Below the pieces are notes generated by a model. That model searched no databases. It was given only the letters and a program-made list of their open reading frames with translations, and was not told where the DNA came from. Shown in pieces: positions 4,758 through 19,866 of a stretch of 20,000 nucleotides of DNA. A program made the translations under genes and the position numbers. Source of the stretch: Chiloscyllium plagiosum (lineage: Eukaryota); contig NC_057757.1 of assembly GCF_004010195.1 (NCBI RefSeq), forward strand, positions 1,241,027 to 1,261,026, read 5' to 3'. Positions within the stretch are counted from its first letter, which is position 1; each line of letters starts with the position of its first letter.

Positions 4758-4866
4758 AATGTGTTGCTGGAAAAGCGCAGCATCAAATGCTGCCTGACCT
4801 CCTGCGCTTTTCCAGCAACACATTTTTCAGCTCTGATCTCCAGCATCTGCAGTCCTCACTTTCTCC
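4758..4866 (+). mobile_element. Palindromic element copy 2, centre (hammerhead) deleted
   Basis: Arms AATGTGTTGCTGGAAAAGCGCAG / CTGCGCTTTTCCAGCAACACATT with the same tail. TSD TAATATTATAGTA at 4744-4756 and 4867-4879. Confidence 0.9.
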
Positions 4867-5967: not shown

Positions 5968-6157
5968 AATGTGTTGCTGGAAAAGCGCAGCAGGTCAGGC
6001 AGCATCCAAGGAACAGGAGAATCGACGTTTCGGGCATAAGCCCTTCTTGCCCGAAACGTCGATTCTCCTGTTCCTTGGATGCTGCCTGACCTGCTGCGCT
6101 TTTCCAGCAACACATTTTCAGCTCTGATCTCCAGCATCTGCAGTCCTCACTTTCTCC
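5968..6157 (+). mobile_element. Palindromic element copy 3
   Basis: Inverted arms with a partly deleted centre and the same tail. TSD TTGAAGCATATTAA at 5956-5969 and 6158-6171. Confidence 0.9.
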
Positions 6158-8974: not shown

Positions 8975-9845
8975 ATGGTAGTTAGGGCAGTTGAATGTTC
9001 CTCCTGCAGAATGTGGGAGGTAAGGGTCACCTCGAGTGTCCCTGCTGACTGCATCTGCAGGAAGTACACCCAACTCCAGCTCCATGGAAACTGTTAGGGA
9101 GCTGGAGCTGGATGAACTTTGGATCATTCGGGAGGGGGTTACAGGGAGGTAGCCACACTCAGATACAAGAAGAAGGTAGATGGGTTACCATCAGAGAATG
9201 GAAAGGGAACCGGCAGGTAGTGCAGGGAACTCCTGTGGCCGTTCCCCTCAATAACAAGTATACTGTTTTGGATACTGTTGGGGGGACAGGTCTCTGGCAT
9301 AGTCTGTCCCCCTTCCTGAGAAGGGAAGGGGAGAGAGGAGCAGAGCATTAGGGGACTACATAATTCAGGGGACAGATAGGAGATTCTGTGGGAAAGAGAG
9401 ACTCTCAATTGGTGTGTTGCCTCCCAGGTGCCAGGGTTTGTGATGTCTTGGATTGTGTTTTCGGGATCCTTGAAGCAGTGGGGGAAGCAGCCCCAAGTCG
9501 TGGTCCACATAGGCACTAACAACATAAGGAGGCAAAGGGATGTGGATCTAAGGCAGAAGTTCAGGGAGCTAGGGTGGAAGCTTAGAGCGAGAACAAACAG
9601 TTGTTATCTCTGGTTTGTTGCTTGTGACATGTGCTAGCGAGCTGATGAGTCAGGAGAGAGGAATTGAACACATGGCTACAGGGATGGTGCAGGAGGGAGG
9701 GATTCAGACACACAGATAATTGTGGCTCATTCTGGGGTAGGTGGGAACTCTACAAACAGGATGGTCTACATCTGAACCATAGGGTACCAATATCTTGGGT
9801 TGGGGGGAGAAATATGCTAATGCTATTTGGGATGGGAACCTAAAT
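8975..9845 (+). pseudogene. CR1 ORF1 remnant: Cys-rich zinc finger plus SGNH esterase-like domain
   Basis: MVVRAVECSSCRMWE...CICRK, VPLNNKYTVL, GDYII (GDS-like block), CCLPGARV, VVVHIGTNNI. Confidence 0.8.
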
Positions 9846-14548: not shown

Positions 14549-14763
14549 TTAGATTAGATTACATTACAGTGTGGAAACAGGCCCTTCGGCCCAACAAGTC
14601 CACACCAACCTGCCGAAGCGCAACCCACCCATACCCCTACATTTATCCCTTACCTAACACTACGNNNNNNNNNNNNNNNNNNNNNNNNNNNNNNNNNNNN
14701 NNNNNNNNNNNNNNNNNNCGCTGTGAGGCAGCAGTGCTAACCACTGTGCCACTGTGCCGCCCA
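14549..14763 (-). mobile_element. HE1-like SINE spanning an assembly gap
   Basis: Both sides of the N-run match 16678-16993. Confidence 0.85.
14665..14718. other. Assembly gap (54 N)
   Basis: Run of N. Confidence 1.
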
Positions 14764-15169
14764 CAAAGTCATAGTGTCAGCACACCTTCCTTCTCTTCCA
14801 TCCTTCTGCACTCAACTAGTAATGTACAAAGATGGCTTCACTTTTAAAACACTTTAATCTCAGTATTAGCATACTACAAACATTTACATTACATTGACTG
14901 TAAACATGCAAACATTCATATGCTGCAGTCCATTTCAATCAGTTTCTTCCACCACGGAGTGTCTTCATCCTTCCAAGTTGTTGCAACGTGTCAGCATTTA
15001 TGTTCTCGTATTCTGCCATTTGCAAAGTCTTCAAATGAAATGCCTGTAACAATAAATTCTATCTGAACTCTGGTATTTTTATCTTTTTTTTTCCAAAAAA
15101 TGTTAAGGGGCTATGATCAGGATACGGAATTTGTTCAGGTATTACTGGTGACCTAACTGTTGAAAAGTT

Positions 15170-15566: not shown

Positions 15567-16218
15567 TGTTACGGACTAGGCCAGTCCACTCAAAACATTC
15601 TTAAGCAGGCAGCCCCAGACTATAACTTTGCAATTTGTTTCAGTAAGTGTACAGTGAACATTACCTGGAATAGGTTAGCAAGGTTGACGACCAGGTTTTA
15701 AACAGACAAACATTTATTCACAAAATTACACAATGAAACACAAAGAACAGAATAATGAACCCTTACAGAACTCAGTCTATCCAAACTAGACTTAATTATG
15801 CTGTTCGCAATATATACACAGTCCCAATAAGCAAACTCCCTTTAAAACCCACTATAAATGGAACACATGCTTACAGGTTGAAGTTGAAGGGCAGAAAGAG
15901 AGAGAGAGAGAGAGAGTTTACGCACAGCTCCCTGTTGAACTTCTCACTAGTTCAGGACTGAACTAAACTGCTCAGTTAGAGAGCTGACCACTCCCCTTTC
16001 ATTGTACAGGTCACTTCTAAAATATGACCACTTTGTCTTGAAGTCTCATCTGTTTACATATAAACAAAAGACCTCTCAAAATCTTTTTCATCTCTGTACC
16101 AAACCGGACTGATTGGAGCCTGGCCGGGTTTGTTGCCCCTCTGAAAAAAATCAAAGACAGAGTCTCCGTGAGCCAAGGATCAGCTTTTAGAAAAAAAAAA
16201 CGGCCTAGCTTTGTGACA
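15567..16218 (-). mobile_element. Solo LTR (652 bp)
   Basis: TGTTAC...GTGACA termini, minus-strand AATAAA near 15715, degenerate 4-bp TSD GTGT/GTTA. Splits the YIG-ETK coding sequence. Confidence 0.8.
15897..15916. repeat. (AG)10 microsatellite inside the LTR
   Basis: Direct read. Confidence 0.95.
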
Positions 16219-16993: not shown

Positions 16994-17544
16994 TTCTCTG
17001 GGGAAGAGAAATCCCCCAGGCTCACCACCCTTTGAGAGGGCTTATCCTATTTTGCAACATCTGTCATAGTGTTTTTCCTAAACCATTAACACTGGGACTT
17101 CACATGTCCTATTTTATTATCGTGAAAACATTGGAGGGATTTTGTTTCTGTTACACCCTCATAGGTTTCTTTTCATAACCTGTGGTAAACTATCTTTACT
17201 GTCTTCAATGGAATCTTCGTTCCTTTTACTACCTGAGGATTTGTCTCTTTCATCAATTTCTACCCCTCACAGATTGAACTTGATGTTCAAAGTCAAACTT
17301 TGATTTATGAACTAATTTCTAATCATCTACCATCTCTGCTATTAATCTTGCAGTTTTAACTCTCTGCCGTTCAACATGAGTTCTCGCTACTTCAGGAAGT
17401 GAGTCTCTCTGAGAGCATCATATGTTTGATCTATTTTCCATGACCTTATCCATAATATCTTTGTTTGATCCTTTCAGACTCTGTATGTTTGACCAGGTTC
17501 CCTCCTTAATTCCTAAAATTTTGTCTATAAGTTCTGGCACTAGT

Positions 17545-18042
17545 TGTGAAACTTGAAAGGGTTCAGAAAAGATTTACAAGCATGTTGCCAGGGTTGGAGG
17601 ATTTGAGCTATAGAGAGAGGCTGAACAGGTTGGGGCTGTTTTCCCCGGAGCACTGGAGGCTGAGGGGTGACCTTATAGAGGTTTACAAAATTATGAGGTG
17701 CATGGATAGGATAAATAGGCAAAGCCTTTTCCCTGGGGTCGGGGAGTCCAGAACTAGGGGGCGTAGGTCTAGGGTGAGAGGGGCAAGATATAAGAGAGAC
17801 CTAAGGGGCAACTTTTTCATGTAGAGGGTGGTATGTGTATGGAATGAGCTGCCAGAGGAAGTGGTGGAGGCTGGTACAATTGCAACATTTAAGAGGCATT
17901 TGGATGGGTATATGAATAGGAAGGGTTTGGAGGGATATGGGCTGGGTGCTGGCAGGTGGGACTAGATTGGGTTGGGATATCTGGGTCAGCATGGATAGGT
18001 TGGACCAAAGGGTCTGTTTCCATGCTGTACATCTCTATGACT
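17545..18042 (+). mobile_element. CR1 3' fragment
   Basis: KLERVQKRFTSMLPGLEDLSYRERLNRLGLFS..RLRGDLIEVYKIM, and a tail ending CTCTATGAC. Confidence 0.92.
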
Positions 18043-18868
18043 TAAGATGGCTTTATCCACCTCATCATATTCCCCAGATTCATCCCCCAGGATGTGGTGA
18101 AAAGAGCCACCTTAAGTGCACATCAACCTGTGCTAACAAATTAAATTGGCCAGTGACCATGTTGGTATTGGTGATTCAAACAAAATTGGTCAGGAGGTCT
18201 CGTGAGGTAAGTGCCTCATTATCAGGTTCACCCACAGGATGAGGTAATCTCCAGGATGAATCTGATAGCGATGCAAATACTTCACTAGCTCAACCTATCA
18301 GTTTTCTTTGAATTAACAAAACCAACAGTCACTGGCCATTTCATTTGTTTAGCCACTTTCTCAAATGAAATGAAAAACGCTTCTATGTCCTTCTCATCAG
18401 ATGTTAGTAATGCTTGGACATACTTTAACAGATCCCCACCAGGTCTTTGGCTCCGATGGATTTGCTCTTCATCACTTTTCCCATCACCACTACTATCTTC
18501 TATCTTCTCCACCATTTGAAGTCAACTTTCAATGCAGACTTCTGAAGTTCAAGACTTCTTCCTTTCTCCCTGTGTCTTCTGCTAGAGCTTTCCTTCCTCT
18601 TGCTTTTTCCTCTGCTTTTAATCATCATTCAAACTGTTTCATTTCCTTTTCATATTTGTGCTGCTTTAGTTGCAACTATTCTGTTTGCATTCCTGGCGAT
18701 TGTAAATGCAGAGTAATGGCTGCAATGATCTCCCCCTTCCTCGCAGAAATCAGCAACTCCAACTCCAATTTATCTGCCAATTCCAAAAGCTTTGCCTTGT
18801 TGACATTCTTTAAAGCAGCTAAGTGAGTTCTTCGACCCCAGGAAACCTTTAATGACTGAACGATCCAT
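18040..18868 (-). pseudogene. Gypsy-type (possibly Gmr1-like) LTR retrotransposon gag remnant
   Basis: ATG at 18868, then KLLELADKLELE, a charged coiled-coil-like region, DEKDIEAFFISFEKVAKQMKWP, ASEVFASLS, and after an interruption SGEYDEVDKAILS. Confidence 0.75.
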
Positions 18869-18979
18869 TACGGAACACCCTGCTCAAACCAACTGAACAC
18901 CTGAAAATAACATTAACACTCACCACTCACTGTCTTTGAGTCCAATAATTTTAAACTCAAGCTGGAATTAAAGATTTTT

Positions 18980-18998
18980 ATCTTGACAAGAGCCTCCA
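18980..18998 (-). promoter_or_regulatory. Degenerate tRNA-Pro-like primer binding site
   Basis: Minus strand TGGAGGCTCTTGTCAAGAT resembles the Pro PBS TGGGGGCTCGTCCGGGAT. It lies 3 nt from the putative LTR end and upstream of gag. Confidence 0.55.
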
Positions 18999-19001
18999 AT
19001 T

Positions 19002-19078
19002 AGTTATCTACCAGATCAAGACCCCTTAAATATATCAAGGAGATAGTCTAGACCCTAACTTCCATCTTATTTAAAGGT
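19002..19078 (-). mobile_element. Truncated 5' LTR (U5 end) of the gag-bearing element
   Basis: Adjacent to the PBS. Resembles the starts of the LTRs at 13955 and 15567. Confidence 0.55.
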
Positions 19079-19557
19079 ACATATATTGGTCAGAGTATTG
19101 AGTACAGGAGCTGGGAGGTCATGTTGAGACTGTACAGGACATTGGTTAGGCCACTTTTGGAATATTGTGTGCAATTCTGGTCTCCTTCCTATCAGAAGGG
19201 TGTTGTGAAACTTGACAGGGTTCGGAAAAGATTTACAAAGAAGTTGCTGGGGTTGGAGGATTAGCTATAGGGAGAGGTTGAATAGGGTGGGGCTGTTTTC
19301 CCTGGAGCTTCGGAGGCTGAGGGGTCCCTGTCAAGGTTTATAGAATCATGAGGGGCAATGATAGGATAAATAAACAAAGTCTCTTCCCTGGGGTGGGGGA
19401 GTCCAGAACTAGAGGGCAGAGATTTAGGGTGAGGGGGGAAAGATATAAAAGAGACCTATGGGGCAACTTTTTCATGCAGTGGGTGGTACGTGTATGGAAT
19501 GAGCTGCCAGGGGGACGGTTCAATTATAACATTTATCTGGATGGGTATATGAATAGA

Positions 19558-19776
19558 GGAGAAAGTGAGGACTGCAGATGCTGGAGATCGGAGCTGAAAA
19601 TGTGTTGCTGGAAAAGCGCAGCAGGTCAGGCAGCATCCAAGGGACAGGAGAATTGACGTTTCGGGCATAAGCCCTTCTTCAGGTTCCTGAAGAAGGGCTT
19701 ATGCCCGAAACATCGATTCTCCTGTTCCTTGGATGCTGCCTGACCTGCTGCGCTTTTCCAGCAACACATTTTCAGC
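19558..19776 (-). mobile_element. Palindromic element copy 4, most complete centre
   Basis: Opposite orientation (tail on the left). TSD TGGGTATATGAATAG at 19542-19556 and 19777-19791. Confidence 0.9.
19650..19719. ncRNA. Two divergent minimal type I hammerhead ribozyme motifs
   Basis: Both strands read CTGAAGA-A-GGGC-TTAT-GCCC-GAAA-C-(A/G)TC. Stem I is imperfect in this copy. Confidence 0.65.
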
Positions 19777-19866
19777 TGGGTATATGAATAGGAAGGGTTT
19801 GGAGGCATATGGGCCAGGTGCTGGCAAATGGGACTAGATTGGTTAGGATATCTGATTGGCATGGAG

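Follow-up and report, generated by a model that had tools for sequence, protein, structure and literature searches.

How does the remnant of a retrotransposon gag gene come to hold two hairpins lying back to back, each consisting of a gag segment and an inverted copy of that same segment? The question is posed by a locus of Chiloscyllium plagiosum, within a stretch of 20,000 nucleotides (NC_057757.1, positions 1,241,027 to 1,261,026; hereafter, the window, with all coordinates counted from its first letter). The explanation that we favor, and consider probable, is an old scar, present at or near single copy, left by error-prone double-strand-break repair in a dead Gypsy gag, in which both ends of the break would have folded back on themselves (a double fold-back).

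The longer of the two inverted repeats pairs 18132-18240 with 18247-18353. Aligned with the reverse complement of the second segment, the first yields 80 identities (80/106), 26 mismatches and 4 gap columns, a local score that was reached in 0 of 2000 shuffles, and the alignment includes an exact 11-mer, TGGCCAGTGAC, at 18147-18157 and 18328-18338. In the shorter one, 18040-18066 and 18091-18117 match at 22 of 27 positions, again with 0 of 2000 shuffles reaching the score. In these respects, the preliminary description of the locus, which had judged the long repeat to be roughly three-quarters identical, pointed to an exact shared stretch within it and counted 22/27 for the short one, stands as it was; the plus-strand peptide mirroring the gag and the minus-strand DEVDKAILS that it reported are both present in the six-frame translation. 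The folding check that it suggested gives, for 18030-18365, two adjacent hairpins on either strand, with z = -7.8 on the minus strand and z = -10.3 on the plus strand (0/100 shuffles each).

The same description rightly held that one simple inverted duplication does not yield the observed order of the segments. That order, A, anti-A, anti-B, B, is correct for the plus strand but not for the gag (minus) strand, to which it had been assigned and which reads B, anti-B, anti-A, A. Similarly, the match at 18091-18117 is real but was made to end too early, the anti-A copy reaching to about 18134. The two hairpin loops additionally share a 24-nt direct repeat (18075-18098 and 18223-18245; 20/24, 0/2000 shuffles), a feature absent from that first account. 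Across the paired columns, 26 of 124 differ, an arm divergence of about 21% (corrected distance, 0.25), so that the junctions of the insert are blurred.

The host gag and its surroundings

The sequence that holds the inverted copies is a decayed Ty3/Gypsy gag on the minus strand. Its 5' part occupies 18261-18849 and ends with segment B (about 18261-18353); segment A, together with a 6-nt middle piece that is likewise host sequence, occupies 18040-18085, the joint in relatives falling at 18079; and a six-frame reading with gag-like frames indicates that decayed gag continues, on the same strand, past a LINE fragment, at 17000-17546. The gag remnant had initially been delimited at 18040-18353; gag is indeed present there but goes on beyond the LINE fragment, from about 17546 downwards. 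A weak tblastn match of the protein relative P0002 at 17521-17480 (E 0.44) lends support to this continuation. The region is frameshifted, and 0 Pfam matches, SCAN included, were obtained for all 3 single minus-strand frames of 17000-17538; over 7 readings of the window, Pfam returned Rho_N below the cut-off and nothing else.

The affinity of the gag is indicated by its protein relatives. A 64-residue minus-strand frame (18330-18521) has 8 relatives among 1.84 billion protein representatives, and a protein of the shark Mustelus asterias is the one relative of the gag piece that bears a name. When the relatives P0002-P0006 were compared with the window by tblastn, the best E-value was 8e-22. 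The alignment of P0004 extends from 18819 to 18260 and recurs at A; this protein runs through B, the middle piece and A unbroken, and P0005 is likewise uninterrupted. P0005, which matches the window with a tblastn E-value of 1e-6, carries a SCAN domain (PF02023, E 2.8e-22), which follows immediately downstream of the region that matches. According to PMC3424704, the SCAN domain derives from a Gmr1-like Ty3/Gypsy gag, and therefore the host is a Gypsy gag related to the SCAN-bearing gags and the element a candidate Gmr1-like one. The likeness to the Gmr1-like gag (PMC3424704) consists in the match to the SCAN-bearing P0005, whereas the window copy differs in being broken by stops and frameshifts and in having no SCAN match of its own. 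No pol was seen beside the gag remnant, and no LTR pair among the window repeats shown. In Gmr1-like elements, pol has the integrase ahead of the reverse transcriptase.

With P0004 as the query, the related loci amount to one metagenome locus (L001, 36%, residues 105-200 only), and viral contigs yielded relatives in 0 of 8 stretches. Two database proteins, P0001 and P0006, have a piece of the same gag fused in front of a host domain, a cytochrome P450 and a 7TM receptor, respectively; these fusions are probably gene-prediction chimeras, and possibly exonised gag.

Just after A, the gag is split by the LINE fragment, the 3' part of an element on the plus strand (17543-18039) that we take to be of the CR1 type. 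The fragment is 81% similar over 377 nt to 19202-19556, has further copies in the window and contains a reverse transcriptase-like C-terminal frame with no Pfam match. At its 5' end (17543-17546), 4 nt (GTTG) are common to the fragment and the gag side, as is typical of 5'-junction microhomology; no target-site duplication is evident around it.

The window as a whole is animal DNA rich in repeats, and the rest of it contains various other repeats and features. A palindromic repeat is represented by four copies (1256-1435, 5968-6116, 19592-19777 and 4758-4824), three of them about 96% and one 81% self-complementary, and a weak, short local inverted repeat at 9062-9119 (75% over 61 columns, E 7e-4) is located near the start of a long LINE-like stretch. 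A candidate solo LTR of about 650 nt (15567-16218), with TGT...ACA ends and, by eye, a possible decayed 4-bp target duplication, is apparently inserted in a Penelope-like endonuclease fragment, and a run of N at 14666-14718 falls inside a SINE-like repeat; the Penelope-like and SINE labels are presumptive. At about 14840-15046 on the minus strand, there is a candidate terminal exon: an AG acceptor precedes 15046, a short frame and a stop follow, and ATTAAA is found at 14858. A lookup of this candidate exon returned no identity, and the ISFEDF motif in its frame is presumably EF-hand-like. Were this exon genuine, an intron on the gag-sense strand could harbor the gag remnant.

Anatomy, age and copy number of the insertion

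The limits of the insertion follow from a comparison with contigs from 4 of 24 sequencing runs, among them X4 (the same species, from another sample and study), X9 (a related species, organism B) and X18 (organism D). Contigs were counted at 80% likeness or higher, their depth is no copy number, and the figures for contig joints and variants, taken among those listed, are lower bounds. In at least two contigs of relatives, one from X9 and one from X18, 18079 is joined to 18261 with 6 letters between them, and the window has 6 letters at 18080-18085 that match this 6-letter gap of the uninterrupted relatives; hence the insertion comprises the 175 nt at 18086-18260, with no net loss of host sequence. 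Flanking templates account for 162 of the 175 nt, and the other 13, at 18086-18090 and 18246-18253, have no template match.

Read along the plus strand, the templated part opens with anti-A (18091-18134), an inverted copy of segment A that spans the point where the CR1 fragment now sits. The 14-codon translation of anti-A aligns without gaps to P0004, P0005 and P0002 (alignments equalled by 6, 17 and 12 of 2000 shuffles, respectively), and its tail matches 17537-17546 at 8 of 10 positions, which alone is not significant (887/5000 shuffles). Then comes anti-B (18132-18224), an inverted copy of segment B that forms the 5' arm of the long hairpin and to which, on the plus strand, tblastn aligns P0003 (18132-18188, E 0.002) and P0004 (18132-18239, E 5e-4). 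Where anti-A and anti-B join, they overlap by exactly 2 nt (GC, 18132-18133), a feature that is weak on its own. The next piece (18223-18245, plus strand) is a direct copy of 18075-18098, that is, of the host end together with the new junction of the short hairpin, and is part of the loop of the long one; a third copy of the hairpin-A junction, of 7 nt, is found at 18251-18257, the 7-mer by itself being no commoner than chance. Finally, 18254-18264 (plus strand) is an exact inverted copy of the 11 nt at 18075-18085 (11/11), the last 4 nt of which (18261-18264) are also the host B end, making a candidate 4-nt primer repeat. At the hairpin A fold-back, no primer repeat was identifiable, and 5 nt there are without a template. 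As read from the sequence, each inverted copy adjoins its own break end on the strand expected to be 3' there. Because the direct repeat includes the new hairpin-A junction, hairpin A apparently came first and templated loop B, so that the two hairpins would be products of one linked event.

Several comparisons bear on the source of the copies and on their age. Compared by eye with the majority of relatives over 30 letters next to 18328, the two arms of the long hairpin share 3 departures, to which B adds 3 more and a 2-nt loss, and anti-B adds 2; this pattern fits the copying of anti-B from this gag copy or a close lineage, with both arms decaying afterwards. The codons of anti-A align gap-free across the LINE site, which implies that the LINE was inserted after the inversion had formed. 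Between this copy and its ortholog in organism B, 18 of 467 flank positions differ (0.04), and at equal neutral rates, the event would be about six times older than the split from that species. Six pieces of relatives in X4 differ from this copy by 14-17%, a range biased down by the 80% likeness filter, and the insertion would be about as old as the gag copy itself. The insertion is older than both the CR1 insertion and the split from the related species.

In X4, a single 329-nt contig covers 18030-18346 with 0 differences and 0 gaps, and contigs of X9 cover both loops with substitutions of their own at 18094, 18106, 18219 and 18244 (among the variants listed). Palindromes are prone to mis-assembly, and an assembly artefact was an alternative raised in the preliminary description, but with an identical contig from an independent sample, loops that carry their own substitutions in another species and arms that differ by about 21%, an artefact is refuted.

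At 18219 and 18244, a single contig makes up the whole depth in X4 (6.68), as it does in X9 (16.1), on a level with the contigs of the unique flanks (4.3 in X4 and 16 in X9). In ordinary gag, at 18339-18378, variants occur in up to 102 contigs (among the variants listed). One contig per run at loop B, against up to 102 on the gag, does not support a large subfamily, and a diagnostic junction common to many copies was not found at 80% likeness or higher; since X4 depth also drops to 4.3 over 18526-18587, which is ordinary gag, siblings old enough to fall below 80% likeness could have escaped detection. Over 18092-18122, X4 and X9 each show a second contig, at depths of 7.72 (equal to that of an uninterrupted relative) and about 7, respectively. 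Furthermore, in at least one X9 contig, of depth 11.4, 18217 is followed after 11 letters by 18264; this contig reads as a B/anti-B fold-back with a 5-nt loop, shares the 11-mer 18247-18257, and could represent either another gag copy with a hairpin or a derivative of the ortholog that has undergone deletion. In X18, there is depth at 18092-18122 and a contig end near 18226, at which ortholog and relatives are indistinguishable, and organism D is not counted. The joints 18147-18339 and 18158-18328 (opposite strand), considered as extra copies of the hairpin, were rejected, their coordinates being those of uninterrupted relatives with the B part mapping to anti-B. A protein search, a weak one, with the plus-strand frame across the anti-A/anti-B junction produced no candidates at 30-98 aa.

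Origin of the two hairpins

The observed gag-strand order, B, anti-B, anti-A, A, is the one expected when both 3' ends of a break fold back, are extended and rejoin. We therefore envisage a break in the gag, between 18085 and 18261, as the presumable trigger. The A-side end, with its 3' strand on the plus strand, would have turned back on itself and templated about 44 nt of new sequence, anti-A. The B-side end, with its 3' strand on the gag strand, would then have been primed briefly on the extended A-side end, producing the repeated 24-nt piece of the loop; the loop repeats would be the record of this aborted priming. Subsequently, a fold-back on the candidate 4-nt primer repeat would have let the B-side end copy about 93 nt of its own sequence, giving anti-B, whereupon the two new tails would have joined at the 2-nt overlap (18132-18133) and the gap would have been filled. 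A Pol theta-like enzyme could have been involved, and the priming steps probably took place in this order. Afterwards, both arms would have decayed neutrally, with the CR1 fragment later landing beside A. Counting against this explanation are the fold-back contig of X9, the second contigs at 18092-18122, the low X4 depth in ordinary gag, tracts longer than those of yeast, the 13 of 175 nt that are untemplated, the lack of an identifiable primer for hairpin A and the blurred junctions.

A variant that is unlikely, but deserves to be taken seriously, has the same fold-back origin in an element that was still copying, so that a small, old sub-lineage of hairpin-bearing gag, with no function, would occupy a few loci. 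The depth of the X9 fold-back contig equals that of a paralog with 27 differences in 18328-18475, depth being the only link between the two, and the divergence of the arms (26/124) is at or above that between this copy and the six X4 pieces, which fits an origin at or before insertion; but loop B is represented by one contig per run in both X4 and X9, the X9 contig could be derived from the ortholog by deletion, the 11-mer, with 1 mismatch, occurs in 4 copies of an abundant window repeat, and the weak search found no protein crossing the junction. The observed order would also result from two steps, a tandem duplication of B-middle-A at microhomology and a subsequent inversion between the copies. 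The A/B join, with its 2-nt overlap, resembles a tandem-duplication junction, and the middle piece is inverted at the B end (18254-18260), but this history predicts a full anti-A extending to the middle piece, whereas anti-A starts at the partner of 18066, and an inverted middle piece on the A side, where the host middle is in place. Such a scenario, which also leaves the direct repeat of the new junction unexplained and needs two rare events within 130 nt, is improbable. Reverse transcriptases switch templates, and the age of the event is close to that of the copy, as expected had copy-back switching occurred during the element's own reverse transcription. The anatomy of the insert makes this origin highly improbable: one pass on one strand would give one of the two inverted copies, and the other would need an opposite-strand template that is not yet made or already degraded.

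The remaining question is whether the hairpins do anything. The preliminary description had offered a choice between a template-switch scar and a non-autonomous subfamily yielding siRNA or miRNA; the former is retained here in the more specific form of fold-back at both ends of one break, and the latter is not supported: at 80% likeness or higher, just one contig holds loop B in either of X4 and X9, the arms show no selection for pairing, and neither an Rfam match nor, among 36 RNA reads, one covering the insert was found. In the broader sense of a functional hairpin locus, intronic or element-borne, directed through endo-siRNA or miRNA against a large gag family, the idea can draw on the strong folding, the retention in two species, the abundance of the target family, for which there are some polyA reads (36), and the known ability of template switching to create miRNA hairpins (10.1101/2023.04.19.537475). 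We nevertheless regard it as very improbable: any 75% inverted copy folds this well, the mismatches show no bias toward G-U, no 22-nt window is protected, and the rate of change between species is not lowered.

The 26 arm mismatches comprise 8 G-U on the plus strand, 4 G-U on the minus strand and 14 transversions (strand bias, p = 0.39), and neither selection for pairing nor an ADAR-editing or G-U signature was found in the arms, at low power. Transversions disrupt pairing whichever strand is read and should be depleted where pairing is under selection; here they are, if anything, in excess (14/26, against 45/130 in relatives; p = 0.06). The best 22-nt window, with 20/22, is as expected by chance (p = 0.45). 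In bins confined to the insert, change between species is at least 4/62, against 18/467 in the flank (p = 0.31), with partner sites masked by paralog depth; at this low power and with this masking, no conserved pairing and no conserved product of about 22 nt emerged. No Rfam family matched 17900-19100 at E up to 1. The 36 RNA reads, obtained from about 2% of one polyA single-cell run, all fit partially, with 0 at 99% or higher and 1 at 95-99%, and derive from relatives of the gag copy; 0 of the 36 lie over 18092-18246, in a library type that cannot show small RNAs. The hairpins thus give no apparent sign of function.

Known fold-back insertions and the significance of the locus

Judged by its sequence features, the locus belongs to an already known kind of event, the fold-back or snap-back templated insertions: it has inverted copies of break-adjacent DNA (162/175 nt) and microhomology at the join (2 nt). 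A four-point template-switch mutation has one inverted fragment and one switch out and back, whereas two permuted tracts and a direct repeat are found here.

In snap-back synthesis-dependent MMEJ of Drosophila, a short inverted repeat serves as primer for a 3' end that folds onto it; once extended, this end unwinds and pairs with the opposite end of the break (PMC5728401; see also PMC2943611), and priming in trans across the break has been described in the fly as well (PMC5728401). The present locus resembles these events (PMC5728401) in the inverted repeats left behind and differs in that both ends appear to have been extended, with tracts of about 44 and 93 nt and several rounds. Break fold-backs in yeast copy the DNA next to the break in inverted orientation, and 0-5 nt of microhomology (median, 2) mark the join; they involve one end, have tracts of mostly 5-34 bp and require Pol delta and NHEJ, and the yeast 'double inverted insertions' come from distant loci (PMC11724301). 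With the yeast insertions (PMC11724301), the locus shares the inverted copy of break-adjacent DNA and the short microhomology, but here, two local fold-backs with longer tracts lie back to back. For Pol theta, stem-loop synthesis has been reported to be able to start from two base pairs (PMC11292364). The template-switch hairpins and de novo miRNAs of primates (10.1101/2023.04.19.537475) are similar in being local hairpins made in one step that then acquire mismatches; there, one inverted fragment results from reciprocal switches, whereas at least 4 switches would be needed here. In the openly accessible literature, no paper on this locus was found under shark Gypsy hairpin or double-ended fold-back, and we do not claim that the double-ended form is unpublished.

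Read as a repair scar, the locus matters little in itself: it would document cleanly, in a form that nature has fixed in the germ line, how both ends of one break folded back, with tracts longer than those in the laboratory assays of the cited work, and would show how long hairpins can originate in one step in repeat-rich genomes. Its importance would grow only if the hairpins turned out to be multi-copy or to produce small RNAs, since an error of DNA repair would then lead directly to the silencing of a transposon family. It is a long shot that fold-back gag hairpins were copied to a few loci and are processed to endo-siRNAs against the large parent family; if this were true, one repair event in an ancestral shark element would have equipped a vertebrate retrotransposon with a silencing hairpin of its own.
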